64,000 nucleotides of DNA from an uncultured Candidatus Actinomarina sp. (GTDB lineage Bacteria; Actinomycetota; Acidimicrobiia; Actinomarinales; Actinomarinaceae): the NCBI GenBank assembly GCA_902619825.1, contig CACNFT010000003.1, positions 10,473-74,472 on the forward strand. The letters are read 5' to 3'. Made by a program: the position numbers and the translations under genes. Position 1 is the first letter of the stretch. Every line of letters begins with the position of its first letter. A model generated the notes under the pieces. The model made no database searches. It was not told where the DNA came from and worked only from the letters and a program-made list of their open reading frames with translations. Below, piece after piece: positions 41,661 to 64,000 of the stretch.

Positions 41661-41664
41661 TTTT

Positions 41665-41955
41665 TTAAATATCCATATTTAATAAGATTTTAAGAATATT
41701 GTATTTTAGAAAATTTTTCACAATATTGAATTGACTCAAGATTCCCTCATCTAAAACTTTTTTACCATATAAAACCACGGGTACTCTCAATAAAAATTCT
41801 TCATAACCATCTTCAACATCAACTTTTTGAATAGTAAAAAGGTTTTTTAAATAACCAAGACTTTTTAAACCTTTATCACATAACTCACAATTTTCTGTTA
41901 CGACAATACGTATAGTGGGCATATCTCTAATATAGTCAAATGAGACCCTGGACAT
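41665..41955 (-). CDS. glutaredoxin-like thioredoxin-fold protein
   Basis: 96 aa with a CELC (CxxC) motif in a short thioredoxin-like frame. Confidence 0.45.
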   Translation of the reverse strand: MSRVSFDYIRDMPTIRIVVTENCELCDKGLKSLGYLKNLFTIQKVDVEDGYEEFLLRVPVVLYGKKVLDEGILSQFNIVKNFLKYNILKILLNMDI

Positions 41956-42015
41956 TAATATTTATAGTTTTGTTAGCTGTCATTATTTTTGTCTCAGGTG
42001 CAATTGTCTTGAATA

Positions 42016-42819: not shown

Positions 42820-42885
42820 TATTTAATTATAAGTAATCTACTGAACTTAATAAATACTTAATATTTTACGAAGATACATCAAGTA

Positions 42886-47023: not shown

Positions 47024-47028
47024 AAATT

Positions 47029-47772
47029 CTAGAATAATCCATTAATGAGATTTAATACATCTACAAAATACAAAGCAAATAAAAAAGAAACTAAATAATC
47101 ATAAAGATAGATTTGGGTCGTGAGTGTTGAAAAATATTTATATTCTCTTCTGTTTCTCTGAAAGAGAAAATTCATTATCACTGTAAAAATTGATATTAAT
47201 CCTGCTGCAATCAAAACATATTGTATGGTGAAGCCAGAGAACAAACTAACTGTTGAAACAACAAAAAACGATGCAAAAAAATTAAAGAAATATTGATAAT
47301 TGCTAAATTGTATATTGAAAAAAGTTGCCAAAGTTTTTATAAAAAAAAGTATTAGAAACAAAAAAGTTAGAAAATCTAAATTTTCACTAAATGTTTTTGA
47401 AACAAAAAAAGACACTAGAAAAAAAGAAATAAATGTCACTAAATAAGCATTTCCGAATGTAGAAATACTTATATCTTTAAAAGTAAGATAAAAAATACCT
47501 ATCAGGATCGAAATCAAAAAGATCATATTCTTTATTTCGCTAATTTCAATAAATATTGTTGCGACAGGGGAAAAAGAGGTTATGAGTAGTAGAAGAATTA
47601 GTATAAATTCATTATTGGTTGTCCGTAACTCACATGCAAGTAGCTCTAATTGCCAAGCTAGTATTAATCCAACAAAACAAGAGATAATTAAATTTTCGTT
47701 GTTTAAAAAAATTGTTATAAAAATTCCAAAAGTAAGAACTGTCTGGATGTATCTAAGTTGGGTTTGTAACAT
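47029..47772 (-). CDS. hypothetical polytopic membrane protein
   Basis: 247 aa with about 7 TM and an extremely I/F/L-rich composition. Confidence 0.4.
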   Translation of the reverse strand: MLQTQLRYIQTVLTFGIFITIFLNNENLIISCFVGLILAWQLELLACELRTTNNEFILILLLLITSFSPVATIFIEISEIKNMIFLISILIGIFYLTFKDISISTFGNAYLVTFISFFLVSFFVSKTFSENLDFLTFLFLILFFIKTLATFFNIQFSNYQYFFNFFASFFVVSTVSLFSGFTIQYVLIAAGLISIFTVIMNFLFQRNRREYKYFSTLTTQIYLYDYLVSFLFALYFVDVLNLINGLF

Positions 47773-47836
47773 TATCCTCGCGAAAATTTTACCTAGATAT
47801 GCTTGAAAACTAAAGCGATTTGTATATAATTAAAAA

Positions 47837-47883
47837 ACACTACATTTAGTGTCAAAAACAGTGGCATATACTACATTTAGTTA
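47837..47883 (+). promoter_or_regulatory. tandem NrdR boxes upstream of nrdJ
   Basis: Two 16-bp palindrome-like sites, ACACTACATTTAGTGT (47837-47852) and ATACTACATTTAGTTA (47868-47883), 31 bp start-to-start, match the NrdR-box consensus acaCwAtATaTwGtgt. An AAAGGAG RBS at 47886 precedes the GTG start. Confidence 0.7.
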
Positions 47884-47898
47884 TAAAAAGGAGATATT

Positions 47899-50800: not shown

Positions 50801-51288
50801 CATTTGAACCACGAGGAATGGTTGAAGGACATGAAAATATAAAAATGAGTAATTCCATTGTTGATTATGTCTTTAGAGCTTTGGGCTTAGAATATTTGAA
50901 TAGAACAGATATTGTACAAAACCCACCTGAGGAATCTGCTTCAGCTCCTGTTGAGGAAGCTACTTCAGCTCCTGTTGAGGAAGCTACTTCAGCTCCTGTT
51001 GAGGAAGCTGAACCAGTAGTTGAGGTAAAAGAATCAGATCCTCCGAGCAGTTCTAAAGCGACAGAAGTTTCAAATGAAGTACAAGAAGTACAGTTTGTTA
51101 CAAAAGTTAAAGAGGTAGAAGCTTTAGACACAACTGAGGCTACTTCAAATTCAGTCACTACAGTACAAGAAGTTCTTGGTGATATGATGGGTGATGCCCC
51201 TGCATGTCCTGATTGTGGTCACATAACAATAAGAAATGGTTCTTGTTACAAATGTCTTAATTGTGGAAACTCTTTGGGTTGCAGCTAA
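47899..51288 (+). CDS. nrdJ: class II (adenosylcobalamin-dependent) ribonucleotide reductase with C-terminal zinc ribbon
   Basis: 1129 aa with N-terminal NrdJ conservation and a GTG start. C-terminal CPDCG...CYKCLNCG zinc ribbon preceded by SAPVEEAT x3 repeats. Confidence 0.9.
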   Translation: MAKNTGLKINRKYTSPGDPYKDIVWEKRSSRITNPDGSVVFEMNNVEIPSTWSQVATDIMVSKYFRKAGVPQTDENGNELKDDNGNAVLGPETSSKQVFNRLAETWRHWGEETGYFASTEDAQAFEDELKYMLATQMAAPNSPQWFNTGLNYKYGLTGKPQGFWYVDPSTGELTAGEDSYSRPQPHACFIQSIDDDLVNEGGIMDLWVKEARLFKFGSGTGTNFSNLRGEGEKLSGGGVSSGVMSFLKIGDRAAGAIKSGGTTRRAAKMVILDLDHPDIEDFIEWKAIEEDKARALINAGYPSDYNGEAYATVSGQNSNNSVRVPNEFIKALETDGDWELTARTDGSTMKTVKARELWNKIADAAWRCADPGVQFNTTINEWHTSPAGGQIRASNPCSEYLFLDNTACNLASLNLVKFYDDDNQVFDVASYKHALRIWTVVLEISVEMAQFPSKEIAQGSYDYRTLGLGYANLGSLLMRKGIAYDSELGRAIAGALTAMLTGEAYKASAEMASIVGPFPKYSENKENMLRVMGNHRKAAYDSGDYVGISHDLLAIDQDLCPDDLLKGAQESWDGALELGEEHGYRNAQATVLAPTGTIGLLMDCDTTGVEPDFALMKFKKLAGGGYMKIANQSIGPALNALGYTNQQTEEIIQYVIGSMSLDGAPFINKETLIDKGLNDQDIENIENSLPGAFEIQHAFNVFVVGEETMQRLNIQEEEYTSFDFNLLEKLGFTKTEIAEANKFICGTQTIEGALHLKDEDLSVFDCANKCGKDGERFIHYMGHVRMMAAAQPFISGAISKTVNMPNEATIEDIENCYFESAGLGIKAIAIYRDGSKASQPLSASSDDGESEETDPQVSEIIENESMLMHGNYPAGTSPTKAYAGTTRPRFLLPERREGWTQEAKIAGHKVYLRTGEYPDGTLGEVFIDIAKEGATLKGVLGCFAIAVSKGLQYGVPLEEFVDTFTFQTFEPRGMVEGHENIKMSNSIVDYVFRALGLEYLNRTDIVQNPPEESASAPVEEATSAPVEEATSAPVEEAEPVVEVKESDPPSSSKATEVSNEVQEVQFVTKVKEVEALDTTEATSNSVTTVQEVLGDMMGDAPACPDCGHITIRNGSCYKCLNCGNSLGCS
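50938..51010 (+). repeat. 27-bp tandem repeat (about 2.7 copies) encoding ASAPVEEAT in the nrdJ C-terminal linker
   Basis: GCTTCAGCTCCTGTTGAGGAAGCTACT is repeated head to tail. Confidence 0.85.
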
Positions 51289-52613
51289 AAAAACTAAAAA
51301 TAATTTATAACCTACAAATATTTAAAATATCAGTAATTTTACTTGTATCCATGATTGGATATTATTTTTTTGAATTTTATATAAGAGAAAACAATCCAAG
51401 TTTACATTTTTGGTGTATTCAAATAAGTAACGATTTTAATTTTGGTCCATTTAATAGGGTGTCTCTTCCAATACACTGTGATGAGGGTCCATATAGACTT
51501 TCATCACAATCACTTGAGCAATTTTTTAGTAAAAACAATCCATATCAAACCCGACCATTGTATGTATTTTTAATTTATGCTTTAAGCAATTTAATTGATT
51601 TTTTTACCTTTTATAATTTGACTGAATATCAAAATTTTCGATTTTCAATAATTGTTCTACAAATTTTAATTATGACTCCAATTATTTACTTATTTATTTC
51701 TTTATTAAATATTAAATTTAAATCTTTCAAAGATTTTTTTATAATTGTCCTTTTAATAGGAATACCTGGAATAAGGTGGAATATTTTTTTTCCGTCTGCA
51801 GGAAATTTAACACTACTATTTTTTCTAATAGTTTTAAATCTGATAGTTAAGAAAGAGAAGTTTAAAAATGATAAAAAGTCTATTTATTTATTACTAAGTG
51901 TTTTATCTTTGGCACACCTCTCTTCTATTGTTTATGGTTTAATTATTGAATTAGTAGATCTTTTTAATACCAAAAAAATTAATCTTTTAAATAGGATTTT
52001 AGATCTAGGAATACTTGTTATTTTTCCCTTGATATATAGATTTATCGTTCATCTCTCACCATACGAGTTTTATGATTGGCATACAGGTGTTTATAGTCAA
52101 TTCTCTTGGATAATTTATGAGTTACAAAATGGAACATTTTTTAATTTTGAAACCCTTAATACCCATATCATTACCTATATTGAGATTACATCTAATTATT
52201 TAGGATACTTTTTTATTCTTTTATCTTATTTTTTTGCACTACTGTTACTCCTAAAATACAAGAAAAAAGAGATACCAATAAAAGTAAAGTACGCTTTTTT
52301 TATAAATTTAATCATTTTTATATTTTGGGGACTACAAGGTTTATATGAATCATTCAGATTTACTAATTACAGCATCGGCTACTTTTTGTTCATTGCAATA
52401 TTTATATTATTAGTTGAAAGTTTTGAAAAAGATATATATTTGATTACAGCTATCTTTTTCTATATTTTATCTGTTGGTTATATTGAACCTTACAATGAAG
52501 CATTAAATTATCCTCAACTAAATTATTTAACTTTTTTATCGTCCTTCTTATTTTTTGTTTTTATATCTAAAGAGATAAGATTAGATAAAGAAAGTTTAAG
52601 TTATGAATCATAA
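51261..52613 (+). CDS. large polytopic membrane protein, candidate GT-C-fold glycosyltransferase
   Basis: About 12 TM with very low-GC I/F/L/N/K-rich composition. The likely start is internal (about 51351, MIGYYFF), which avoids overlap with nrdJ. Confidence 0.4.
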   Translation: MWKLFGLQLKKLKIIYNLQIFKISVILLVSMIGYYFFEFYIRENNPSLHFWCIQISNDFNFGPFNRVSLPIHCDEGPYRLSSQSLEQFFSKNNPYQTRPLYVFLIYALSNLIDFFTFYNLTEYQNFRFSIIVLQILIMTPIIYLFISLLNIKFKSFKDFFIIVLLIGIPGIRWNIFFPSAGNLTLLFFLIVLNLIVKKEKFKNDKKSIYLLLSVLSLAHLSSIVYGLIIELVDLFNTKKINLLNRILDLGILVIFPLIYRFIVHLSPYEFYDWHTGVYSQFSWIIYELQNGTFFNFETLNTHIITYIEITSNYLGYFFILLSYFFALLLLLKYKKKEIPIKVKYAFFINLIIFIFWGLQGLYESFRFTNYSIGYFLFIAIFILLVESFEKDIYLITAIFFYILSVGYIEPYNEALNYPQLNYLTFLSSFLFFVFISKEIRLDKESLSYES

Positions 52614-54033
52614 AATTCTCATTATTGGAGCAGGGCCTGCTGGCTTAACTGCTGCATGGGAGGCTGAGAAATTAGGCATCAAAACACTTGTTTTAGAAGG
52701 TGATAAAGAGGTCGGTGGAATAAGTAGGACAGTCGAACGAAATGGATGGAGATTTGATATTGGAGGTCATAGATTTTTTACAAAAGTTGATGAGGTTTAT
52801 AAAATTTGGGATGAAATATTGGGCAGCGATGATTTTTTATTACGTCCAAGAATGAGTCGAATATATTACAAACAAAAATTTTATGATTATCCTCTCAAAG
52901 CATCAAATGCTTTATTCAATCTTGGTATTTTTGAAGCAATTAGGTGTGTTCTTTCCTATTTCTATGTAAGAATCAGGCCCCCTAAGAATCAGGACAATTT
53001 TGAAAATTGGGTTGCTGCAAGATTTGGGTGGAGACTATACAACATCTTTTTTAAAACTTATACAGAAAAAGTATGGGGAGTTGATGCAACAAAAATTGGT
53101 TCTGATTGGGCGAGTCAAAGAATAAAAAACCTATCATTAATGAAAGCCATACTTAACGCATTTCAAATAAATAAATCCGGAGAAATTATTACAACACTAA
53201 TTGATAAATTCAAATATCCAAAGTATGGGCCTGGAATGATGTGGGAAACAGCTTATAAAAAATTGCTCGATAAAGGTCATGAAATAAAACTAAATAAAAG
53301 AATCGTTGAGATATCAAAAGAAGATGATCATTATTTAGTTACTACAAAAGATGGGGAACAATTCAAAGCAGATAATATTTTAAGTAGTATGCCACTTGCA
53401 CATCTTCCTAAAACTATAAAGCCCTCTCCTAGTAAGGAAGTATTAAATTCTGGAGAAAATCTTAAATTCAGAGATTTCCTTTCAGTTGCACTAGTCATTA
53501 ATGAAGAAGATGCTTTCCCAGATAATTGGATTTATATTCATGAGCCTGGAGTGAAAGTCGGACGAGTACAAAATTATGGTAGTTGGTCTCCATTTATGGT
53601 CAAGGAGGGGAAAACCTGTTTAGGCCTTGAATATTTTGTAAATATTGGTGATGAACTCTGGAGTATGGAAGATGAAAAGCTTATTGCACTTGCAACTCAT
53701 GAACTTGAGAAACTGTCATTGATTAAAAAAGATTCATCTCTAGAAGGATATGTAGTCAGGATGCCAAAAGCTTATCCAGTATATGATTTAAACTACTCTA
53801 AAAACATAGAAAATATAGCTGATTGGTTATCTAAAGAACATAAAGGCATACATCCAATTGGAAGAAATGGAATGCATAGATATAACAATCAAGATCACTC
53901 AATGATGACTGCAGTTAAAAGTGTAAGAAATATTGTTCTAAATGAAGTTAATGATATTTGGAAAATTAATGTGGAAGAGGATTATCACGAAGAAATTAGC
54001 ACAGGAAGATCAGCTCCGGTACAAAAAGACTAA
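52603..54033 (+). CDS. FAD-dependent oxidoreductase (amine oxidase / UDP-galactopyranose-mutase-like fold)
   Basis: N-terminal dinucleotide motif ILIIGAGPAGLTAAWEA, then VGGISRT and IGGHRFF (compare UGM GAHIFHT). Confidence 0.55.
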   Translation: MNHKILIIGAGPAGLTAAWEAEKLGIKTLVLEGDKEVGGISRTVERNGWRFDIGGHRFFTKVDEVYKIWDEILGSDDFLLRPRMSRIYYKQKFYDYPLKASNALFNLGIFEAIRCVLSYFYVRIRPPKNQDNFENWVAARFGWRLYNIFFKTYTEKVWGVDATKIGSDWASQRIKNLSLMKAILNAFQINKSGEIITTLIDKFKYPKYGPGMMWETAYKKLLDKGHEIKLNKRIVEISKEDDHYLVTTKDGEQFKADNILSSMPLAHLPKTIKPSPSKEVLNSGENLKFRDFLSVALVINEEDAFPDNWIYIHEPGVKVGRVQNYGSWSPFMVKEGKTCLGLEYFVNIGDELWSMEDEKLIALATHELEKLSLIKKDSSLEGYVVRMPKAYPVYDLNYSKNIENIADWLSKEHKGIHPIGRNGMHRYNNQDHSMMTAVKSVRNIVLNEVNDIWKINVEEDYHEEISTGRSAPVQKD

Positions 54034-54078
54034 TTATCTTTAACTTAATATTTTTACTTTGAATATAATTATTTTTTA

Positions 54079-54152
54079 GGGCGCTTAGCTCAGTCCGGCA
54101 GAGCGCTTCCCTTACAAGGAAGAAGTCACAGGTTCAAATCCTGTAGCGCCCA
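54079..54152 (+). tRNA. tRNA-Val (anticodon TAC)
   Basis: Acceptor GGGCGCT/AGCGCCC, D-loop AGCTCAGTCCGGCAGAGC, anticodon loop CTTACAA and T-loop GGTTCAAATCC. No encoded CCA. Confidence 0.85.
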
Positions 54153-54247
54153 CAAGGGTTTTTCAGAAATCTTTACATATATATACTCAAAAGACACCTA
54201 AAAGACACCGCTTCTGTAGAGTTTCATTTGGTAACATACATTTAGTT

Positions 54248-54769
54248 ATGGAATTAGATTTTGAATTTGAGTTAAGCAAAGGAAAACAGAACTCACTTGG
54301 AGAGACATTAAAAGTAGTAGAACATATTCAAAACAATATAAAAGAAATTGATAAATTATTCTTATGTTTTTTTTCTAACAATTCTTTAGTTGCAATGAGA
54401 GCTATGAATGCAACAAAAAGAATAATAAAAGGTGATAATCATATTTTTGTTGAAAATAAAAAAAGATTCATAGATGAGTTTTCAGAGTCTGAACATAATG
54501 TAGTCAAACTTGGGCTTATTACAATTTATTATGATTTCATTTCATATTTTGACGATAAAGAATACAAAGTTATTAGTAAAAATGCAATGAGTTGGGTGGA
54601 AAATAGTAAAGACTGGATGATACTTGCTCAAGGTTTAAAACTTCTAGAAAAATTATCCAATTCAGACGAAATATTGAAGTCAAATGTTATAAGTATCGCA
54701 AGACAGTTAAAGAATGATGAAAGAAAAGCTGTTAGATCTCAGGCACAAAAAATTTTAAAAGACACCTAA
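54248..54769 (+). CDS. hypothetical all-alpha (HEAT-like) protein inside the tRNA-Val-flanked cassette
   Basis: 173 aa hydrophilic protein. It is bracketed by AAAAGACACCTAAAAGACACC direct repeats, and its stop codon lies inside the downstream copy. Confidence 0.45.
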   Translation: MELDFEFELSKGKQNSLGETLKVVEHIQNNIKEIDKLFLCFFSNNSLVAMRAMNATKRIIKGDNHIFVENKKRFIDEFSESEHNVVKLGLITIYYDFISYFDDKEYKVISKNAMSWVENSKDWMILAQGLKLLEKLSNSDEILKSNVISIARQLKNDERKAVRSQAQKILKDT

Positions 54770-54892
54770 AAGACACCAAAATTTTCTAAAACTGTAGATA
54801 CTCTCTGATAACCTCTGATATCTTTCTGAAAAAGCTTACGTTCGTTGACTCTATAAATTGATACTCTCTGATATTACCAAGTATTTAATGGC

Positions 54893-54950
54893 TCTTTCCT
54901 TACAAGGAAGAAGTCACAGGTTCAAATCCTGTAGCGCCCACTAGGGTTTT
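54893..54950 (+). repeat. duplicated 3' fragment of tRNA-Val (anticodon stem to acceptor end) plus about 35 bp of flank
   Basis: TTCCTTACAAGGAAGAAGTCACAGGTTCAAATCCTGTAGCGCCCA is identical to the 3' part of the tRNA at 54079-54152. The flanks GGGTTTTTCAGAAATCTTTA(C/T)ATATATAT are also conserved. Confidence 0.8.
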
Positions 54951-55259
54951 TCAGAAATCTTTATATATATATGTGCCTCAACCCCACATTTTGCTTAAAT
55001 TTTTGTAAACTTTAAATTATGAAATACAAAAAAAACTTAGGTGCTTTATTAGTTTTTTTAGCTTTAACCGGGCAAGCATTTGGCTCTCTTAACTCTAGCT
55101 ACACTCCAACTCAAGCAATTCTTGTTGTTCTGTTTGCGTATCTTGGAATTCAATTAACTTACTTCGTTTATTTTAAAAATAACTAAGACGAGTGCGAAAA
55201 AATTAATTTAAACCCCTTGAATTTATAAATTCACAGAATTTTGGAATTATAATACTTCT

Positions 55260-55973
55260 ATGGATTTTGACTATGAAAATATTCCTATAGGTTATTATGA
55301 CAAAGTTTTGACAGAAGGATTAAAGAAAAAAAGAGGCCTTCAATCAAGTTGGCACAACTTAAAATTTTGTACTGTTAAAGAAAATCTATATGAATATGAT
55401 TCTCACCTAGATATAGCTTGCGGTCCTGGAACCTTTATAGGTAATTATTTGGACAATAGGTCATTTGGAATTGATATTTCAAATAAACAAATTGATTATG
55501 CAAAGAATACTTATCCTGAGCTCAAAGATAATTTTATGGTTTCTGATATTAGATATGAAGCAGTCGATAAAAATGATTTTGATGTAATTACCGTTCTTGA
55601 GCTGATTGAGCACTTTCAACCTAACGAAGTTAATGAGCTAGTAAATTTGCTTATGAGCAAGTTAGGGGAAAATGGTAAATTGATCTTAACCACACCAAAT
55701 TATTCTGGCATATGGTTATTTCTTGAGAAAATAGTCTCTATTGTTGGTCCAGTAAATTACAAATATCAACATATAAATAGATATACAAAAAATAGAATAT
55801 TAAAACAATTTACAGAGTACAGAGTTGAAGTAAAAAAATATATTAATTTTGGAATTTTCTTTTCAATATTTAGTACAGATTTAGGTATATTTATGAATAA
55901 GTTAATATCCAAAATATTTTTTAATTTTTTTGGTTACTCGTTAATAATTACGATATACAAATCTAAAAAATGA
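55260..55973 (+). CDS. class I SAM-dependent methyltransferase
   Basis: Motif I LDIACGPGTF, then motif II/III (DVITVLELIEH). Confidence 0.7.
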   Translation: MDFDYENIPIGYYDKVLTEGLKKKRGLQSSWHNLKFCTVKENLYEYDSHLDIACGPGTFIGNYLDNRSFGIDISNKQIDYAKNTYPELKDNFMVSDIRYEAVDKNDFDVITVLELIEHFQPNEVNELVNLLMSKLGENGKLILTTPNYSGIWLFLEKIVSIVGPVNYKYQHINRYTKNRILKQFTEYRVEVKKYINFGIFFSIFSTDLGIFMNKLISKIFFNFFGYSLIITIYKSKK

Positions 55974-56686
55974 ATCCTGCCAAAGAATATGTCGTAATAA
56001 TCCCTACATATAACGAGGCAAGCAATATCACTGAGTTACTTGATAACTTACTAGATGAGAATTTGCACATACTTGTTGTAGATGATGGTTCTCCAGATGG
56101 TACATCAAAGATAGTTGAAAATAATTCATTTTATAACCAAAGAACTTTTTTAATTAATCGTGGGTCAAAAAAAGGATATGCAAGTGCCTGTATAGAAGGA
56201 TTTGAATGGAGTATAAATAATAAATATGATTTTGTTATCCAAATGGATGCAGATTTTTCACACTCAATAAAAGACTTGAAAAATATGTTACGTTATTCTG
56301 AAGAATACGATTTAGTTTTGGGAAGTAGATACATTCCGGGTGGTGAAATAATCGGCTGGGGATTATTAAGACAAATATTATCAAAATATGCCAATATTGT
56401 CGCAAGAATTATGACTAGATCAAAATTAAAAGATCTGACAACCGGGTTTAGAATTTATGATATCAAGCTATTAAAAAATATTAATCTTAAAGGTTTAGAG
56501 TCTGAAGGGTACGGTTTTTTAGTTGAAATCCTCAATTTAATTATTAAAAAAAATAAAAATATAAAGGAAATACCGATTACTTTTAATGATAGAAAACTTG
56601 GGGAGTCAAAAATGTCCTTTAATGTAATTCTTGACGCTATGAAAACAACTTTAAAAATTGGATTTATTAATTACATTAAAAATTAA
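55970..56686 (+). CDS. GT2 family glycosyltransferase, polyprenol-phosphate mannose synthase (Ppm1/DPM1)-like
   Basis: IIPTYNEASNI ... VVDDGSPDGT ... DADFSH motifs and a ~240 aa size typical of DPM1-like GT2. Overlaps the methyltransferase gene by 4 nt. Confidence 0.7.
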   Translation: MNPAKEYVVIIPTYNEASNITELLDNLLDENLHILVVDDGSPDGTSKIVENNSFYNQRTFLINRGSKKGYASACIEGFEWSINNKYDFVIQMDADFSHSIKDLKNMLRYSEEYDLVLGSRYIPGGEIIGWGLLRQILSKYANIVARIMTRSKLKDLTTGFRIYDIKLLKNINLKGLESEGYGFLVEILNLIIKKNKNIKEIPITFNDRKLGESKMSFNVILDAMKTTLKIGFINYIKN

Positions 56687-56691
56687 ATATT

Positions 56692-58638
56692 TTAAGAATG
56701 GAATTTATAAATATTTACATTACCTTTTGAAAAAATTAGACTACCACAATCACTATCTTTATCTATTACTACAAAAAAAATATTAGAAAAGTTTGCAAAT
56801 TCTGCACAGTCCCCACCATAGAAGTTTCTTAGTTTGTCAATTCTTTCTCTCCAAATTGATATATCTCGGATGTTATAAGCATTGAATTTCCATGTAGCGT
56901 AGGTTGGCACCTGAGTTTCGTATTCAATAAAATTAAGTGTGCTTTTCATAGATGCACTATCGTATAAAGGCAATAGTAAAATATCAATCTCATTTTCTGA
57001 TACAAAATCAAGTATTTCTGAGTCAATTTTTGTATTTAACTCGTCGAAATAATAATCATTTTGAACATTAGTGAATCCTTGTAGAAAAACAAAAAGTGAA
57101 ATTACTATTGAAACAAAATTTAATACGGGTATATTTTCATTTGAAATATATGAACAAATAAAAAGATAAAAGAAGATTAAGAAAACAGATCCAATTCTAA
57201 AAGGAAATAGCATAGTAAATTGGCTAAATGGAAAAATAAATACAATTAACAAATAAATCCAAAAAATAATTGAAATAAAAATAGAAATATCTAATAGTTC
57301 ATTCTGAGTATTTAGTTTTAAACGAAAATAAAACAGAAAAAAAAGAATTGAAGCCATCACTGCAATTCCAAAAATCCACTGATCATTAATAGTAATGAGA
57401 TTATCTGAATACTTATCAAATGGATAAAGATGATGTGGGGCTCTTACTTTAATCATATTTATTAGATTTGAATTAATTAAATCTGAGTCAATGGACATAT
57501 TTGAAAATAAGTTTTGTCTCATTAGATTAATTATTAAAGGTAAAGAGAGTAAAAAAGAAACAAAGTTAAAGGTTAAAATATTTTTTAATTCAAATTTTTT
57601 CAGTTGTATATAAATATATACAGGGAAAGTAACAATCGCCACAGATGCATGAAAATAAAGGGTGAGTAAGTAAAAAAAACAGGACCATAAAAGATTTCTT
57701 TTATAACCAAATATAAAAGAAGTAAGCAAAGATAAGTAAGCAAATACTTTACCTTCAACAGAACCAAAATAAAATTCTCCACTTAGAATTGATTGCTGCC
57801 CAATTAACAATATAATTAAAAAAATTGATGCACCTAAATTAATTTTAAAATTATATGTAAATTCTCGAACAAGAATGGCAAACCAAACACAAATAATAAT
57901 CTCTAATATAATTTTGAAGCTATCACCAAACAAAAGGTTTGAATATTTAACGATAATATTGAACAAATATAAATGTGAATCACCAATATATGCTGAGTAG
58001 GGAGAGTTGTCTACAATTGCATGACCAAAATAAGTTAGTTCGTTAAGTGTAATATTTTGATTTAGTACATCTGATAAAACACCAGCAACTAATAAATAGA
58101 AAATAATACTTAAACTCTTTGATTCTGATAATGCAGAAAAAATATAATAAATAATAATTACTTTAAGTAAGAGCCAAAGTAAACCATTCCACGTAAAAAA
58201 GTAATAGTCATATATAAGCGATAAAAGTATTGAATTAATTGAAATCAAAAAAATTAGCCTAGACTTTTTAATATTATTTATATTTAGATAAATCAAAGTA
58301 AAAATTAGTGTGTTTGTTAGCACCTCAAATCTTTTGCTAGAGCTGGTTTCAACTATTATTCTTTTTTCCTCAACAACTAAATTATTTATTGTTCCCAAGC
58401 AAAAGAAATTGCTTACGTTTGGAAAAACGCTTATTGGTTTATTTACGATTTGAATAAATTCTTCTGGATAAAGATTTTTATATGAAACTACATCATGTAT
58501 ACATCGATCTTGTGTTTCAAATTTAAAATTGACATCGTTATTGAAGTTTGTATTTTGAATTTTCGTAAATGTTAAAACAATCAAAAAAATAACGCATATA
58601 TAAAGTAGTATTTCGTTAGATTTTTTGTTTATCAACAT
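56692..58638 (-). CDS. large integral membrane protein with a C-terminal soluble domain, candidate GT-C glycosyltransferase
   Basis: 648 aa with about 14 TM followed by a ~150 aa hydrophilic C-terminal domain. Confidence 0.4.
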   Translation of the reverse strand: MLINKKSNEILLYICVIFLIVLTFTKIQNTNFNNDVNFKFETQDRCIHDVVSYKNLYPEEFIQIVNKPISVFPNVSNFFCLGTINNLVVEEKRIIVETSSSKRFEVLTNTLIFTLIYLNINNIKKSRLIFLISINSILLSLIYDYYFFTWNGLLWLLLKVIIIYYIFSALSESKSLSIIFYLLVAGVLSDVLNQNITLNELTYFGHAIVDNSPYSAYIGDSHLYLFNIIVKYSNLLFGDSFKIILEIIICVWFAILVREFTYNFKINLGASIFLIILLIGQQSILSGEFYFGSVEGKVFAYLSLLTSFIFGYKRNLLWSCFFYLLTLYFHASVAIVTFPVYIYIQLKKFELKNILTFNFVSFLLSLPLIINLMRQNLFSNMSIDSDLINSNLINMIKVRAPHHLYPFDKYSDNLITINDQWIFGIAVMASILFFLFYFRLKLNTQNELLDISIFISIIFWIYLLIVFIFPFSQFTMLFPFRIGSVFLIFFYLFICSYISNENIPVLNFVSIVISLFVFLQGFTNVQNDYYFDELNTKIDSEILDFVSENEIDILLLPLYDSASMKSTLNFIEYETQVPTYATWKFNAYNIRDISIWRERIDKLRNFYGGDCAEFANFSNIFFVVIDKDSDCGSLIFSKGNVNIYKFHS

Positions 58639-58785
58639 AAAAAAGCTTTTGTAAATAGCCTAGTAATAAAATCCAAATAGTTTTAGCAAGTAATAAATAG
58701 TTAAATTCACTCTTAAATTTTTTGTAAATGCTATTTAGTTAATAAAGAATTTATTTTTTAAAGTGTAATTATAATTATCGAAGTA

Positions 58786-60213
58786 ATGAGAATTGTAAAC
58801 CTGTTTAAGAGTAATTTATTAATTATCCTTATATTTTTGCCACTTCTAGCAAATTTGTTGAATAATATTTTTCAAGATAGTGATATTATCAGCAATTTAT
58901 CATATGTAAATTTAGTCAACTTTTTATCAGTATGTTTGGGTTCTGTTTTTTATTTAAATTTATTTATGAAAATAAATAAATATTTGAAAATTCAGTCAAT
59001 TACGTTGACTTCCTTATTTTTTTTAATAAGCTATTTTTTATTCGACTCAATTTTTGTTTTTCTTTCTAAAAATTTCTCGTTTTCAATTAGTTATTTAATA
59101 GTCAGTTCTTTATGGTTACTAATTCTGATTTTTAAGAAAATTAAAATACTTGATATAAGTAGCATTGGTCTGACATATTTTCTATTTCGATATTTTAATC
59201 ATAAATATTTTGATATCTTATCAAATAATTTAAAATATCAAGAGCTTAACTCAGATGTCCCTTATCAATGGAATCAAATTGTTAGTATGATTTACAATGA
59301 AAATTATTTTTATTCATTAACAAATAATCCTATTAGCGGTCAAGGTTTACTTCTTAGTCATATTCAGGCTTTGTTGTTGAAGATAAACTTTGATACTGAA
59401 AATTTTATTTTTATCAAAAGTAACTATAATTTAATAATTTTTTTCAGTCTTTTATTTATTTTTGATCTTGACATAAAGAAAAAAAATAAAGTAATTTGTT
59501 GCTTGTCTTTTATATTGATTCTCATTAATAATGACTGGCTTTATTATCTTATAACAAATTCTCTTATGTTGGAGGGCCTTGCCAGTCTTCTGTTCGCAGT
59601 ATTTACCTATTATTTCCTTCAATTTTTAACAACTAAAAATAGGGCATCTAAATTCTTCTTTTTATGTTTTGGAAGCCTTGTACTTTCAAAAAATTTTATA
59701 ACTTTAATTGTGTTTTTTTTAATGTTGACGTCTTTATTTTTTTTAAAGAAAAATAAAGACGTAATATATGCTTTTATACCCTATATTTTTTATTTGACAT
59801 ATCAAAGAATATATTCAGCAGAGGTTCAAACTTTTGCATATACAAACGAAATAGATTTTAATAAATTATTATTGGATCTTTTTTATCTTCGCAATCTTGA
59901 ACTTCAAAATATTCTAAATATTTTAAAACAATTTTTAATAGATAAACCAACTAGTTATTTATTTATATTATTTTTCTTAACTAGTGTTTATTACATTTCA
60001 AAATCATCAAAAAGATTTAGTTTCATACAATTAAGCTTCATAATCGTCATATTAAATTACTTACTAGTAAATATACTTTACGTGTCCTATTGGCAAAATG
60101 TAGAATACGAATCTTCATATCGATACATAATAAATACTTTTCATTTAGTTTTTATAACGTTATGTATAAATTTAAATTATTTTGAAGTGTTATCTAAAAA
60201 TAAACGAATTTAA
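58786..60213 (+). CDS. large integral membrane protein of unknown function
   Basis: 475 aa with about 12 TM and extreme AT-driven composition. Confidence 0.4.
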   Translation: MRIVNLFKSNLLIILIFLPLLANLLNNIFQDSDIISNLSYVNLVNFLSVCLGSVFYLNLFMKINKYLKIQSITLTSLFFLISYFLFDSIFVFLSKNFSFSISYLIVSSLWLLILIFKKIKILDISSIGLTYFLFRYFNHKYFDILSNNLKYQELNSDVPYQWNQIVSMIYNENYFYSLTNNPISGQGLLLSHIQALLLKINFDTENFIFIKSNYNLIIFFSLLFIFDLDIKKKNKVICCLSFILILINNDWLYYLITNSLMLEGLASLLFAVFTYYFLQFLTTKNRASKFFFLCFGSLVLSKNFITLIVFFLMLTSLFFLKKNKDVIYAFIPYIFYLTYQRIYSAEVQTFAYTNEIDFNKLLLDLFYLRNLELQNILNILKQFLIDKPTSYLFILFFLTSVYYISKSSKRFSFIQLSFIIVILNYLLVNILYVSYWQNVEYESSYRYIINTFHLVFITLCINLNYFEVLSKNKRI

Positions 60214-61526
60214 TTTTTAGATTGAATCAATTTTTCAATATTGAAAACCAATATAAGAAAAGTAAAAGTCAAAAAACAATAATATAAAGTTTTACTTAGA
60301 AAGAATAAAAAAAGTTCAACAATATTATTTTCAAGCGACGTGCCTACAAAGTATTGAAGAGGAATTACCGCAAAGGTAATTAAAAATAGTAAAGTCATAT
60401 TTTTATTCAAGAATTTAAATACTGCTAAAAATAATAAAATGTTTAAAGAGAATTTATAGCCATAATTAGAGTAGGAATTTATAAAAATTGAAAGAAATGA
60501 AAATATTATTATCAATAGTGAGTCTTGAGTCTTCCACTCTTTAATTTGAATCTTGAATATAGATGAATACAATTTTTGTCTTAAGATAAATAATGAAATT
60601 AAAAATATGGACAAAGAGGTAATAAATATATATAAATACACTGTATTTATCGACTCTAAAAGAGTGAGGTCGTGGAAGAGACCAAATGTATTAACTTTTG
60701 ATATTGGACTAGGAACTGAAATATTGAGTGAGTTGTAATACCACAAAAGTACAACCGTATTAATTAAAGATACAATTGTAATTTTTTTTATATTTTCATA
60801 ATCTTTGCTTATCAATTTATAGACTATTACACCAAATAAGATAAAAATTGGATAAATTTTAAATAGTGTAAGCAAAGTCAAGAAAAACATATATAAATTG
60901 CTAGCTAAAAATTTTTCGTTTTTGAATAAAATCAAGAAATAAAAAATAAAAATAATGTCATGATTTAATGTTTGAAATAAAAATAGGAATGGTGGAAAGG
61001 TAATCAATAAATTTAAGAATAAAAAATTGTTATTTTTTTGTTTATAAATTAAGTAAATCATAGTTGAGAAAGTAATAACAAATATAAAGATAGATGATGT
61101 CCATGGATTTAATGTAATATTAAATTGCCTTGCAAAAGGGCCGTAAATGTATTCTGAAAACGGACCAAAGCCCAATGAAATACATTCCATTTTTTCAGTA
61201 GTAAATTTATAGGTGTAATGTAGGCTCCAATCAACCTGGCAATTTAACTTAAATAAAAATAGTTGCATATCCCAAAAAATTGACTTATTTTGATGTATAA
61301 AAATTGTGATGATTCTTAGTAAATAAAAAAATATTGGAAAAAATTTTAATAAGTTTACATTAGTTTTAGTCAACCAATTTTTATTTTTAGAGTTAAATAA
61401 GTAAATAAAAAATAATATCGATATCAAAATGAAATACTCATAAAAAAAATTACTGAGTAAATACAGACAAGCAATAAAAACCGTAGCTACCGTACTCAAT
61501 TTGAAAATTTTTAACTCATTAATCAT
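60210..61526 (-). CDS. large integral membrane protein (O-antigen ligase/polymerase-like topology)
   Basis: 438 aa with about 11 TM. Convergent 4-nt overlap with the previous gene. Confidence 0.4.
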   Translation of the reverse strand: MINELKIFKLSTVATVFIACLYLLSNFFYEYFILISILFFIYLFNSKNKNWLTKTNVNLLKFFPIFFYLLRIITIFIHQNKSIFWDMQLFLFKLNCQVDWSLHYTYKFTTEKMECISLGFGPFSEYIYGPFARQFNITLNPWTSSIFIFVITFSTMIYLIYKQKNNNFLFLNLLITFPPFLFLFQTLNHDIIFIFYFLILFKNEKFLASNLYMFFLTLLTLFKIYPIFILFGVIVYKLISKDYENIKKITIVSLINTVVLLWYYNSLNISVPSPISKVNTFGLFHDLTLLESINTVYLYIFITSLSIFLISLFILRQKLYSSIFKIQIKEWKTQDSLLIIIFSFLSIFINSYSNYGYKFSLNILLFLAVFKFLNKNMTLLFLITFAVIPLQYFVGTSLENNIVELFLFFLSKTLYYCFLTFTFLILVFNIEKLIQSKN

Positions 61527-61667
61527 GTGTTCATTGTAATTTTATTTTTTTAATTTATTGGACTTACTTTTATTTCTATTTGAATAAATAAATGATGAGT
61601 TAACAAAAATTTAATTTATGACTTTCTTATTTGATATGAATAACTAGACAATGTGTAATATGGTTGT

Positions 61668-62654
61668 ATGAAAACTGCACTAGTCCTCGGAGGTGGTGGT
61701 TTTATTGGAAGCCACATGGTAACTCAATTAAAAAATGAAGGTTATTTTGTAAGAGCCTTAGATGTTAAGTTACCAGAATTTTCAACAACTAGCGCTGATG
61801 AATTCGAAGTCTATGACCTTACTAACCCAGAAAAATATGAAGACTTTTTTACAATAAATAACTCTTGTTTTGATGAAATCTATCAGTATGCAGCAGATAT
61901 GGGAGGAGCAGGTTATATATTTAGTGGTGAAAATGACTCTAGTGTTATGACAAACTCATCATTGGTCAACCTAAATACTCTCAAAACTATAGTGACATTG
62001 AATAATAAATATGAAACAAATAAAAGTAGAGTTTTCTACGCAAGTTCAGCTTGTATTTATCCTGAGCATAATCAATTAGACCCTGAGAATCCAAATTGCT
62101 CAGAAGATTCAGCATATCCGGCTATGCCAGATTCTGAATACGGATGGGAAAAACTTTTTTCTGAAAGACTTTATCTCAGTTATGCAAGAAATTTTTCCAT
62201 AAATGTAAGGATTGCTAGATTTCATAACATATTTGGCCCTGAAGGTACATATGATGGTGGAAAAGAAAAAGTACCTGCTGCAATTTGTAGAAAAGTTGCT
62301 TTATCAAATGGTGAAATAGAAGTTTGGGGTGATGGAAAACAAACAAGATCTTTTCTTTTTATTGATGAGTGTATAAATGCTACAAGAAAATTAATGCTAT
62401 CAAATGAGACTGGCCCTTTTAATATCGGATCAGAAGAAATGGTGTCAATAAACGAATTAGTTGATATCGTCGCCGATGTTGCTGGCAAGAATATAACAAT
62501 AAAACATATTGATGGACCATTAGGTGTTAGAGGTAGAAACTCAGACAATAAATTAATAAAAGAGAAATTAAATTGGGATTATAAAATGTCATTAAAGGAC
62601 GGAATCAAAATAACTTATGACTGGATAGAGAAACAGCTTTTAAATATTGAGTAA
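61668..62654 (+). CDS. NAD-dependent sugar-nucleotide epimerase/dehydratase (extended SDR)
   Basis: LVLGGGGFIGSHMV Rossmann motif and the YxxxK catalytic region of the extended SDR family. Confidence 0.7.
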   Translation: MKTALVLGGGGFIGSHMVTQLKNEGYFVRALDVKLPEFSTTSADEFEVYDLTNPEKYEDFFTINNSCFDEIYQYAADMGGAGYIFSGENDSSVMTNSSLVNLNTLKTIVTLNNKYETNKSRVFYASSACIYPEHNQLDPENPNCSEDSAYPAMPDSEYGWEKLFSERLYLSYARNFSINVRIARFHNIFGPEGTYDGGKEKVPAAICRKVALSNGEIEVWGDGKQTRSFLFIDECINATRKLMLSNETGPFNIGSEEMVSINELVDIVADVAGKNITIKHIDGPLGVRGRNSDNKLIKEKLNWDYKMSLKDGIKITYDWIEKQLLNIE

Positions 62655-63531
62655 ATTTTTAGTTATTTTAACTGGCTCTCCAAGAGGAGGTCTTAAAACC
62701 TGGAATAGTCTATTCAAAAATATTATTGATCCATTGAATGCGGATTTAGCTATATGTTTTGGCAACAAATTTTTGGAAAAAGATAACTCATTATTGGTTA
62801 AAAAAGCTACTCACGATTGGACTTTTGAGGAACCAAATAATTGGTCAACATATTATCAAGATAATTATTCAAAAAAAGCTATAGATTTTCTAATATCTGG
62901 TTCAGATTATGGAATGGCAGGTGGAATAGACGACAACACTGGTTCAGGAGCTATCGTTAGTGCATTAAAAGATATAATATATAAAAATCATATCAAAATA
63001 GTAGAAGATTACGATTTTGTAATTCATACAAGAGCTGATCAATATTACGTGGATAAATTACCAGAAATAAAAGATAATGAAATCCTTATTCCAAGTGGTG
63101 AAGACTATTTTGGAATTTGTGACAGGTTTATATTATTTCATAGTAAATTTGCAAAAAATTATTTCAGCTTATGTAATTTCTTAGAAAATGCACAAGATAA
63201 GAATTTAGCGCCAGATTTTGTGACACCAGAAAGTGTCCTACTTTCCCACCTTAAAAATGAAAATTTGTATTCAAATGTAAAAAGAATAGACCGATTTAAT
63301 TTTACAGTTACATTAAAAAACGAACACACCCGCTGGAGAGTTGCAAAATATAATTTATACCTAAAAAATCTTATGATAAAGTATCCTGATGAGTTTTTAG
63401 ACTCGATGGAAAATTTACGAAAAAAATATGGTTTTTATAGATTCTTATTAAAAGATATTGTTTTAGCTTTAAATTTTTACTACCTTGTCTTACGTAAAGT
63501 TCTTGGCAAACTTAAGAAACTATTTTCTTAA
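62647..63531 (+). CDS. hypothetical protein
   Basis: 294 aa soluble ORF overlapping the epimerase by 8 nt, with no recognisable motif. Confidence 0.35.
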   Translation: MSKFLVILTGSPRGGLKTWNSLFKNIIDPLNADLAICFGNKFLEKDNSLLVKKATHDWTFEEPNNWSTYYQDNYSKKAIDFLISGSDYGMAGGIDDNTGSGAIVSALKDIIYKNHIKIVEDYDFVIHTRADQYYVDKLPEIKDNEILIPSGEDYFGICDRFILFHSKFAKNYFSLCNFLENAQDKNLAPDFVTPESVLLSHLKNENLYSNVKRIDRFNFTVTLKNEHTRWRVAKYNLYLKNLMIKYPDEFLDSMENLRKKYGFYRFLLKDIVLALNFYYLVLRKVLGKLKKLFS

Positions 63532-64000
63532 TAGCGTTATTGGATTTGTATAGTCTATGTTTAAATCTTGTTCTTCAATTTTGAAATTGTGAGTTTCAGC
63601 AAGATTTAAAAAATTTTTTATTCCTACCCAATACCATCTTCCTGGAAAGGGTTTGCCATTACTGTCTTTTAAAGCATCTTTAATTAACTTATTGTTTGAG
63701 AGTTTGTAAATAAATTTTTTTTCTGGCAGATATTGGATTACATGGTTCCTATTTTCAGGTTCGCTATTTATATATTTAGCAGGATCAGCATACATTATCA
63801 AAAGTTTTGATCCAGGTTTGCATTTTTTATTTAAAGATTTTAAATAAGCTTCAACTCCAGATTGAGATATATGACAGAAAACATCATAACTAAATACAAA
63901 GTCTATTGAGTTGTTTTCAATGTGATCTAAGGAAAAATCTAAGTTTTGTTTATATTTAACTTTTTTTTTGCTTTCTTCTCCCATATATTCCCAAAAACTA
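63520..64000 (-). CDS. class I SAM-dependent methyltransferase, 5'-truncated by the window edge
   Basis: Post-motif-I region SIDFVFSYDVFCHIS. The reading frame stays open upstream of the annotated Met through position 64000. Confidence 0.5.
   Translation of the reverse strand, partial: SFWEYMGEESKKKVKYKQNLDFSLDHIENNSIDFVFSYDVFCHISQSGVEAYLKSLNKKCKPGSKLLIMYADPAKYINSEPENRNHVIQYLPEKKFIYKLSNNKLIKDALKDSNGKPFPGRWYWVGIKNFLNLAETHNFKIEEQDLNIDYTNPITLLRK

Follow-up and report, generated by a model that had tools for sequence, protein, structure and literature searches.

Gene content and base composition downstream of nrdJ

The DNA analysed here is a stretch of 64,000 nucleotides from an uncultured Candidatus Actinomarina sp. 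(assembly GCA_902619825.1, contig CACNFT010000003.1, positions 10,473 to 74,472; hereafter referred to as the window). Downstream of the ribonucleotide reductase gene nrdJ, it carries a set of genes for glycosylation enzymes interspersed with genes for large membrane proteins. The open reading frames (ORFs) of this region (51261-64000) agree in position with those of a first-pass annotation made from the sequence, which had described the region as a strain-variable island for cell-envelope glycosylation. The first gene (51261..52613; all genes are located on the plus strand unless stated otherwise) encodes a polytopic membrane protein of 450 amino acids (TM450) with a predicted GT-C-like fold. 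This gene fills a slot of variable content, located between nrdJ and the gene for a 476-aa flavoenzyme similar to UDP-galactopyranose mutases (UGM; FAD476, 52603..54033), with which it overlaps by 11 nt. The tRNA-Val(TAC) gene (54079..54153), detected by ARAGORN and Rfam, opens the flexible island. Its 3' half belongs to the first copy of a repeat resembling an attachment site (att; 54103..54190), which covers the tRNA gene from its anticodon arm through its 3' end and continues for approximately 30 nt. The second copy (54891..54978), a tRNA-Val 3' fragment, closes a mini-cassette of about 0.8 kb, the single ORF of which encodes a protein of 173 aa (p173, 54248..54769). Directly after this fragment, an ORF of 55 aa with two predicted transmembrane (TM) helices was found (55019..55186). 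It is followed by the genes for a class I S-adenosylmethionine (SAM) methyltransferase of 237 aa (MT237, 55260..55973) and, with an overlap of 4 nt, for a putative polyprenyl-phosphate sugar synthase of the soluble DPM1/Ppm1-like type (GT2_238, 55970..56686, 238 aa).

Three further large membrane proteins are encoded downstream. TM648 (56692..58638, minus strand, 648 aa) is polytopic, contains an extracytoplasmic N-terminal loop and a C-terminal soluble domain of approximately 125 aa, and is a candidate GT-C glycosyltransferase. The genes of the likewise polytopic TM475 (58786..60213, 475 aa), the predicted fold of which leans toward GT-C, and TM438 (60210..61526, minus strand, 438 aa) are convergent. 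The remaining genes encode a homologue of GDP-mannose 3,5-epimerase (GME; 61668..62654, 328 aa), a soluble protein weakly similar to DUF7796 (p294, 62647..63531, 294 aa), and a second SAM methyltransferase (63520..64000, minus strand), the 5' end of which lies beyond the end of the window and which comprises 240 aa in the related contig L081 (see below).

The GC content, calculated in 2-kb windows, is 0.336 ± 0.020 across positions 1-45000 and decreases locally to 0.22-0.24 after nrdJ. The minimum of 0.216 at 58.5 kb is 5.9 standard deviations below the average, and values of 0.268 and 0.233 were obtained for 51289-64000 and 56692-61526, respectively. The AT-richness noticed in the first-pass annotation was hence borne out. 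The analysis of codon usage it had proposed, however, revealed no shift: at third codon positions, the GC content (GC3) of the island genes (0.18-0.24) does not differ from that of the core genes (0.15-0.27). Only codon positions 1 and 2 show the decrease, which is strongest in the four large membrane proteins, in which F, I, L, V, M, W, and Y account for 52-57% of the residues. Therefore, foreign codon usage was rejected as an explanation for the low GC content; the AT-richness of the island reflects amino acid composition, together with a weaker constraint on the soluble island proteins.

Low GC content is not confined to the flexible part. Upstream of nrdJ, on the minus strand, the block 45072-47772 (GC 0.273) encodes a GT4 glycosyltransferase, an Acetyltransf_6 protein (FemAB-like GNAT), and a 247-aa membrane protein without Pfam or NCBIfam match. 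This block is syntenic in the genome L001 (67-79% protein identity) and in L081, which shows that low GC content alone does not mark the flexible part. The 247-aa protein (at 47029), which had been grouped with the island proteins before, is indeed a Pfam-less membrane protein; since it is conserved (the protein is 79% identical in L001 and 93% in L081) and part of a syntenic core block, it was rejected as a member of the island. Another membrane protein of the core part (37022-38425, plus strand, 467 aa) is encoded with a GC content of 0.288, and 53% of its residues are hydrophobic.

Variability of the region between genomes

The window was compared with related loci, among them the Ca. Actinomarina single-cell genome AG-422-C10 (L001), a metagenome contig of 28 kb (L081), and a contig of 1.17 Mb (L101). 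Two stretches of the window, 41295-51288 and 52610-54164, are colinear with L001, at nucleotide identities of 78% and 80%, respectively. Synteny ends at the tRNA-Val gene, in line with its earlier designation as the anchor of the region, and no nucleotide similarity between L001 and the window was detected beyond it. The island of L001 comprises the same kinds of genes: a GtrB-like GT2 and relatives of TM475 (455 aa, 31% identity) and TM450 (430 aa, 38%) are encoded there, as are further membrane proteins without Pfam match (645 and 556 aa). FAD476 is 88% identical to its counterpart in L001. Between nrdJ and this flavoenzyme gene, L001 has a gap of only 56 bp and no TM450 gene, the 38% identical copy being located inside the island. 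The nrdJ gene itself (47899-51288), which encodes a class II ribonucleotide reductase, contains a low-complexity insert at 50900-51200 with tandem SAPVEEAT repeats in front of the C-terminal Cys-rich tail; an APAAPVQE repeat is found at the same place in L001.

The flexible part begins immediately after nrdJ with the slot occupied by TM450 in the window, and opens fully at tRNA-Val(TAC). The gene content of the segment between nrdJ and the tRNA gene differs among the window, L001, L081, L101, L109, and L112. In L081, a UDP-GlcNAc 2-epimerase gene and a GT2 gene replace the genes of TM450 and the flavoenzyme, and in L101 a gene for a DUF8201 protein separates nrdJ from the flavoenzyme gene, at the place taken by the TM450 gene in the window. 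The gene order in L101 is nrdJ, DUF8201 (550 aa), flavoenzyme, a 514-aa protein, Epimerase_2, GT2 (246 aa), TM450-like, GT2 (233 aa), a 449-aa protein, TM475-like, and GT2 (237 aa). DUF8201 (PF26626) membrane proteins of about 550 aa are encoded in L101 (14291-15943), twice in L107 (6924-8585 and 9562-11220), and at the ends of L109 and L112; they may represent another orphan family involved in glycan assembly.

The sequence from 54891 to the end of the window is 99.45% identical to L081, whereas nrdJ matches at only 83.5%, indicating that this 9-kb cassette moved recently between lineages. It is nearly identical in L081, L082, and L083. A protein identical to TM450 was found on ten metagenome contigs, five of which, independent of each other and with 99% identity, stop inside the tRNA-Val gene at 54096-54128, as assemblies usually do at polymorphic junctions. 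The homologues found for TM450, TM475, and TM438 all originate from marine metagenome contigs or single-cell amplified genomes (SAGs), and every genomic context examined was of the Actinomarina type. Two properties of the flexible island published for this order (fGI1, or hypervariable region [HVR]; see below) were thus observed here, namely a different gene content at the same place (L001, L081, L091, L101, and L107-L112) and, at a tRNA hot spot, cassettes that end in direct repeats of partial tRNA genes.

The tRNA-Val hot spot

In an alignment, positions 54891-54952 are 95% identical to the 3' part of the tRNA-Val gene (54103-54164). The exact 28-mer core of the repeat occurs twice in the window, with zero copies expected. 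The 3' half of the tRNA-Val gene plus about 30 nt serves as a reusable attachment site, at which cassettes are stacked and each of them is closed by a tRNA fragment. In the window, the p173 mini-cassette precedes a second one, at least 9 kb long, that is shared with a different Actinomarina lineage. p173 is encoded by the only ORF between the two repeat copies (54165-54890). This mini-cassette is missing from L081, in which an intact tRNA-Val gene directly precedes the downstream cassette, pointing to a later insertion of the p173 cassette in the window. The exact 173-aa protein was found in 793 indexed blocks of the sequence collection searched. The cassette is strikingly widespread and conserved: its nucleotide sequence is 92-98% identical in genomes whose nrdJ genes are only 81-88% identical to that of the window (L107-L112), and its position is always beside tRNA-Val or fragments thereof; two genes for 173-aa proteins are present in L107. 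No match of p173 was found in Pfam, PHROGs, or PADLOC, no significant match in the PDB, and no relative among 2.9 million viral contigs scanned. A similarity to lambda P-like helicase loaders (PDB match with an E-value of 0.014) was not significant, and this assignment was discarded. The cassette gene could be selfish or related to insertion. The DNA of the 55-aa ORF behind the second repeat copy (55014-55186) was found again in L107, L108, L110, L111, and L112 (78-93% identity), sometimes apart from p173; the gene was called in L107 and L112.

Other cassettes were found at the same site. L091 is 99% identical to the window up to the tRNA-Val gene, which is followed there by a different cassette of 1.1 kb (L091 3572-4710) closed by another tRNA-Val fragment. 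Besides an ORF of 90 aa, it contains the gene for a T5orf172/MUG113 protein (194 aa) that matches PADLOC PDC-S57 (218 bits), a candidate family for phage defence; the hot spot hence accepts defence cargo, too. In L107, L108, and L112, two to three tandem copies of the tRNA-Val 3' core lie within 1-3 kb. In these arrays, cassettes are stacked, with a tRNA fragment at the end of each. The layout is similar to that of an integron; in contrast to integrons, an integrase was seen in none of the Actinomarina loci examined.

The large membrane proteins

The proteins of 450, 648, 475, and 438 aa, as well as the 247-aa protein of the core block, each contain 8-12 hydrophobic segments. As already noticed in the first-pass annotation, the four island proteins lack a recognizable motif: no match was obtained in Pfam at E ≤ 10 or in NCBIfam at E ≤ 0.01. 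None of them was assigned by hidden Markov models to the existing GT-C families in Pfam/NCBIfam (PMT, PMT_2, STT3, Arabinose_trans, GT87/DUF2029, GT-C_AftD, Dpy19, YfhO, and others), and searches of all PDB sequences with profiles of the family alignments (A1, A2, A3, A5, and A6) gave nothing meaningful. C-terminal soluble domains, previously ascribed to the membrane proteins in general, are restricted to TM648; the other three end in a transmembrane helix.

For TM450, 77 homologues of about 430 aa (33-100% identity) were found, none of which is annotated. Its start is given in databases either as TTG at 51261 (450 aa) or as ATG at 51351 (420 aa); the residue numbers used here follow the 420-aa version. 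Invariant in 64 sequences are C22, H42-C43-D44-E45-G46, N63-P64-Y65-Q66-x-R68-P69, W143-N144, H189, D242-W243, and R336. The acidic pair D44/E45 is part of a loop of about 90 aa after the first transmembrane helix, which also contains the invariant C22 and C43. The K-rich N-terminus and the conserved cysteines suggest that this loop lies outside the cell, and D44/E45 are positioned where the catalytic loop of a GT-C enzyme would be expected. The AlphaFold2 model of TM450 has a mean confidence (pLDDT) of 87.2 and a predicted TM-score (pTM) of 0.89. In a Foldseek search against the PDB, it retrieved members of four different GT-C families, namely ArnT (5ezm, probability 1.00, TM-score [TMq] 0.45), ALG12 (9s6t, probability 1.00, TMq 0.46), AftB (probability 0.96, TMq 0.40), and PimE (0.35). 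All transporters, flippases (including WzxE), major facilitator superfamily (MFS) proteins, and G-protein-coupled receptors in the Foldseek list have a TMq of 0.15 or lower, and no Wzy, WaaL, or SEDS chain is included in it. Judged by the model, TM450 has a GT-C-like and not a transporter-like fold, and it combines this fold with an acidic first loop that is probably exposed to the outside.

TM475 has 34 homologues, none with a Pfam match, in which D87, D157, Q161, W162, E263, and K302 are invariant. Its AlphaFold2 model (pLDDT 87.4, pTM 0.89) resembled in Foldseek the GT-C arabinosyltransferases AftA (8if8, probability 0.44-0.51) and EmbB (7bvf_B, 0.38), which are the only PDB matches with a TMq above 0.3; all others have values of 0.18 or lower. 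The predicted fold of TM475 thus leans toward GT-C, at sub-threshold scores. The structure comparison that had been proposed to distinguish between GT-C and transporter folds thus retrieved no transporter for either protein and clearly pointed to GT-C for TM450. The polyprenyl-phosphate sugar/GT-C logic put forward earlier for the membrane proteins as a group is accordingly best founded for TM450, with its GT-C-like model and invariant acidic loop, while TM475 only leans in this direction.

A word-based search yielded six homologues of TM648, a full HMMER search 499 (202 at E ≤ 1e-10). Most of them comprise about 500 aa and match residues 170-645, which identifies TM648 as a member with a long N-terminus of a sizeable family. 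Near-invariant in 92 relatives are E200, Y203, E295, H330, R399, H403, P406, F407, and R481, the corresponding consensus motifs being NE-E-x-Y-F-x-L-A (E200, Y203) and R-x-P-H-H-x-x-P-F (R399-F407). The NE-x-x-YF motif follows the first transmembrane helix of the relatives of about 500 aa. The 61-residue Pfam model DUF6798 is matched by 49 of these 92 relatives in the C-terminal soluble domain; a literature search for DUF6798 found nothing, and the cluster members of ten relatives are named only "hypothetical protein". At its N-terminus, one relative is fused to a GtrA domain (4e-20); one weak match to Dpy19 (E 0.007) and a match to EpsG were also found among the relatives. The GtrA fusion and the acidic motif after the first helix of the short relatives would fit a GT-C enzyme; no PDB sequence matched TM648.

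TM438 has eight homologues in metagenomes (52-99% identity). Seven aligned sequences share the motifs WDMQLF, SLGFGPF, FPPFLFLF-TLN-D, and SNYGYKFSLNIL. No family, PDB, or profile match was obtained. The gene adjoins a TM475-like gene in L081, L083, L085, and L086, and TM475- and TM438-like genes flank a GtrB-like GT2 gene in L088 and L089. TM648 and TM438 are treated here as candidates for GT-C glycosyltransferases, the former with indirect support from its acidic loop motif and the GtrA-fused relative.

Soluble enzymes of the island

The first-pass annotation had listed a Ppm1/DPM1-like GT2, two SAM methyltransferases, and a UGM-like FAD enzyme among the membrane protein genes; Pfam, NCBIfam, and PDB matches are in accordance with all four. 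GT2_238 matches Pfam Glycos_transf_2 (96 bits). Its best PDB match is the dolichol-phosphate mannose synthase of Pyrococcus (5mlz, 99.6 bits, residues 8-225), followed by ArnC and GtrB. The best NCBIfam models (AglJ, PpgS [66 bits], ArnC, and dolichyl-phosphate hexose transferase) are matched over the full length but below their equivalog cut-offs. Hence, GT2_238 most plausibly belongs to the soluble DPM1/Ppm1-type synthases of polyprenyl-phosphate sugars. Small GT2s of 233-246 aa, counted by a match to AglJ/PgfS/ArnC/PpgS or by tblastn to GT2_238, are encoded beside or near orphan membrane proteins in L001, L081, L088, L089, L101, and L105. Those of L101 are AglJ/PgfS/ArnC/PpgS-like over the full length, the GT2 of L001 comprises 292 aa with two C-terminal transmembrane segments, and L088 and L089 contain GtrB-like ORFs.

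The protein of 328 aa, which had been recognized before as an NAD-dependent sugar epimerase, belongs to Pfam Epimerase and can be specified further. Arabidopsis GME (PDB 2c59) is matched with 296 bits (E 2e-87, residues 6-324), while the next-best family, UDP-glucose 4-epimerase, scored 93 bits. By these scores, it is a GME homologue. Characterized GMEs produce GDP-L-galactose and GDP-L-gulose, so that the homologue points to an L-galactose or L-gulose route. p294 matches DUF7796 with 24 bits, below the cut-off of 27, and always accompanies the epimerase in L081, L083, and L085. MT237 is matched by Methyltransf_23/25/11 and has a hydrophobic C-terminal tail. The second methyltransferase is a Methyltransf_23 protein according to the gene in L081 (14735-15457), to which the part encoded in the window is 100% identical over 154 aa. 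Leloir glycosyltransferases (GT8, GT2, and GT61) are encoded in L081 directly past the position equivalent to the end of the window.

FAD476 matches NCBIfam NF005548 with 723 bits, and its best relatives of solved structure are UDP-galactopyranose mutases of the eukaryotic type (4dsg, 89 bits, residues 3-444); an exact look-up of the FAD476 sequence returned no record. NF005548 proteins from Actinomycetota, Acidobacteriota, Chloroflexota, Planctomycetota, and Bacteroidota (L002-L080) share 50-60% identity, and the family is still named "hypothetical protein" in NCBIfam. Among 80 loci with homologues in other phyla, the most frequent neighbours included PMT_2 GT-C proteins (8), DPM1-like GT2s (5), GT-C_AftD (4), and GtrA (4), and the enzyme is thus habitually linked to glycosylation with lipid-linked sugars. 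NF005548 may represent an uncharacterized step in pathways of lipid-linked, possibly furanosidic, sugars.

Comparison with known systems

The island itself has been published, a fact missing from the first-pass annotation. The study of Lopez-Perez et al. (2020; PMC7771536) reports for the order Actinomarinales a single flexible island, fGI1, with a conserved position, a size of 43-79 kb, and a GC content of 28%. According to this study, fGI1 is dedicated to "cell wall biosynthesis and modifications" and to decorating the envelope with sugars, is under-recruited in metagenomes, and contains tRNA insertion hot spots, direct repeats of tRNA fragments, and some cassettes common to several genera (PMC7771536). 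A tRNA-bounded hypervariable region is likewise described by the 2026 preprint "Actinomarina, resolved", which is based on 84 complete genomes (bioRxiv 10.64898/2026.04.03.716425). The window is an instance of this fGI1/HVR: the organism group, the class of function, the tRNA hot spots, the repeats of tRNA parts, and the cassettes shared between lineages are the same, and the GC content of 26-27% in the window compares with the 28% reported. As far as their passages on the island go, both papers annotate in bulk by KEGG, UniRef, and ESMFold (PMC7771536; bioRxiv 10.64898/2026.04.03.716425). These passages describe neither the membrane proteins discussed here nor a GME; a term search of the preprint gave no "GT-C".

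Three groups of glycosylation systems resemble the gene set of the window. GtrA/GtrB/GtrC catalyse O-antigen glucosylation encoded by phages of Shigella and Salmonella, and CsbB/GtcA/YfhO the glycosylation of teichoic acids in Firmicutes. In such systems, a GT2 forms the polyprenyl-phosphate sugar, and a serotype-specific polytopic GT-C enzyme transfers the sugar outside the cell; the GT-C partner evolves fast and is hard to annotate, and the mobile modules alter phage receptors. The Actinomarina loci share with them the combination of a GT2 with a fast-evolving, poorly annotated, putative GT-C partner on mobile modules. They differ in that no GtrA/GtcA was found, several GT-C candidates are present per locus, and the modules are, judged by the viral contigs scanned, not phage-borne. 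In addition, GtrB and CsbB possess C-terminal transmembrane helices, which are present in the L001 paralogue but missing in GT2_238, for which reason the latter is called DPM1/Ppm1-like. Closer in phylogeny are the GT-C enzymes of Actinobacteria fed by Ppm1/PpgS (PimE, MptA/B, and Rv3779; Emb and AftA-D, which depend on decaprenylphosphoryl arabinose), which belong to the same phylum. In these organisms, a DPM1-like synthase supplies several envelope GT-C enzymes, and AftB, PimE, AftA, and EmbB are among the fold matches reported above. The island proteins, however, do not belong to GT87, GT89, GT85, GT53, or PMT by sequence, and their genes are located in a hypervariable island instead of the conserved core. 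Mycolic acid genes are absent from Actinomarinales according to PMC7771536. The third group, lipid A modification by ArnC/ArnT, provides the best structural match of TM450 (ArnT, 5ezm) and one of the best matches of GT2_238 (ArnC). TM450 and ArnT, however, are only 12% identical in sequence, TM450 does not match the ArnT family model, and the host is of the Gram-positive type without lipid A.

Interpretation of the island and its membrane proteins

The region is interpreted as the origin-proximal edge of the single flexible island (fGI1/HVR) of Ca. Actinomarinales, which would serve strain-specific decoration of the envelope with a biochemistry based on GT-C enzymes (probability roughly 0.7). 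The genome comparisons, together with the published descriptions, agree with the strain-variable glycosylation island envisaged in the first-pass annotation, and this part of the interpretation is known; the part that is probably new is the GT-C fold, predicted from the models, of at least one and probably more of the large unannotated membrane proteins. They would accordingly be sequence-orphan members of a known enzyme superfamily, which applies to TM450 at least.

The following sequence of reactions is conceivable. In the cytoplasm, the GME homologue would yield GDP-L-galactose or GDP-L-gulose, and the UGM-like flavoenzyme would probably perform a pyranose-furanose conversion. On the inner face of the membrane, GT2_238 would attach a sugar to polyprenyl phosphate, and the lipid-linked sugar would be flipped across. 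At the outer face, the GT-C membrane glycosyltransferases would transfer the sugar to an envelope acceptor, which may be a polysaccharide, a lipoglycan, or a protein; for this step, TM450 is the best-supported enzyme, followed by TM475 as a probable one and by TM648 and TM438 as candidates. The SAM methyltransferases may cap or modify sugars, and the Leloir glycosyltransferases encoded beyond the end of the window would build the rest of the glycan. An exchange of pairs consisting of a small GT2 and an orphan GT-C protein would change the surface glycotype, presumably under phage pressure. Phage evasion is the selective rationale offered in PMC7771536.

Several observations weigh against this interpretation. 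No flippase was found in the window or in any of the Actinomarina loci by tblastn with a GtrA domain. The Foldseek E-values of TM450 are weak (0.017-0.2), its TM-scores are below 0.5, and the root-mean-square deviations are 8-12 Å, while the GT-C matches of TM475 are sub-threshold (probability ≤0.51, E-values of 0.8-2.3). Comparisons of the four membrane protein families with hhalign revealed no mutual relation, and the probability of a relation to an alignment of PMT_2 proteins taken from the neighbours of the flavoenzyme homologues was 3% or lower. The sequence of GT2_238 does not reveal the donor sugar. The contigs ending in the tRNA-Val gene are the only proxy for read under-recruitment obtained for the window, and no integrase or other recombinase was seen at the att site.

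The strongest of the alternatives, although rather unlikely, is that the large membrane proteins are other proteins of polysaccharide assembly, such as Wzy polymerases, WaaL ligases, EpsG-like proteins, or flippases. Proteins of this kind are equally polytopic and fast-evolving, often lack a family match, and are typical of variable glycan clusters. The 556-aa island protein of L001 weakly matches EpsG (E 0.0015), one relative of TM648 also matches EpsG, and the flippase role, for which no protein was found, could be filled by TM648 or TM438. For TM450 and TM475, however, no structural match other than GT-C proteins rises above background, with WzxE and MFS proteins at TM-scores of 0.15 or lower and no Wzy, WaaL, or SEDS protein listed; because of these fold matches, the alternative is disfavoured for both. 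It stays in consideration for TM648 and TM438, even though one TM648 relative is fused to GtrA, a typical partner in GT-C systems, and the orphan membrane proteins recur beside small DPM1-like GT2s.

An origin of the low-GC block as recently acquired DNA from a foreign donor of lower GC content, either a phage or a member of another phylum, is very improbable. It would explain the extent of the GC decrease (to 0.22, 5.9 standard deviations under the core) and the position next to a tRNA gene with direct repeats, which is classic for integrated elements, and the preprint takes the lower GC content of singleton genes as a sign of recent acquisition (bioRxiv 10.64898/2026.04.03.716425). Nevertheless, the unchanged GC3 and the restriction of the shift to codon positions that follow the amino acid composition argue against a foreign donor, as do the exclusively marine homologues of TM450, TM475, and TM438 in Actinomarina-type contexts and the cassette common to another Actinomarina genome at 99.45% identity. 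Neither p173 nor the TM450 family had relatives in the scan of 2.9 million viral contigs, and no integrase or phage gene is present in the window, leaving a phage-borne origin without support. That the region is instead a conserved, lineage-specific cell-wall cluster, as the syntenic nrdJ, flavoenzyme gene, and GT4/GNAT/TM247 block in L001 (78-80% nucleotide identity) and the near-identical 9-kb cassette in L081, L082, and L083 could suggest, is effectively refuted by the entirely different gene content of L001 past tRNA-Val, the divergence of L091 right after a 99% identical stretch up to the tRNA gene, the contigs breaking at this gene, the varying contents of the slot between nrdJ and the tRNA gene, and the hypervariability reported in PMC7771536 and bioRxiv 10.64898/2026.04.03.716425.

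Going beyond the envelope-decorating island with its GT-C enzymes, we tentatively propose, as a possibility that is still rather doubtful, that the exchange of modules, each comprising a small soluble DPM1-like synthase and a sequence-orphan GT-C protein, is the main source of surface diversity in Actinomarina. This would involve at least three to four GT-C families outside Pfam/NCBIfam (TM450, TM475, TM438, and the TM648/DUF6798 family of about 500 members) and a tRNA-Val att site without a recognizable integrase, the insertion machinery of which could include p173, a protein identical in hundreds of contigs.

Among free-living marine bacteria, Actinomarina is one of the smallest and most abundant, and its envelope is uncharacterized. 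The analysis turns hypothetical membrane proteins of the most variable, probably phage-exposed part of this organism into testable enzyme candidates, namely extracytoplasmic glycosyltransferases fed by polyprenyl-phosphate sugars, possibly including an L-galactose or L-gulose route via the GME homologue. It also corrects the common reading of low GC content in islands as foreign codon usage. If all four families were confirmed, the GT-C superfamily would gain families missed by sequence annotation, and a handle on the cell envelope of the low-GC marine Acidimicrobiia would become available.

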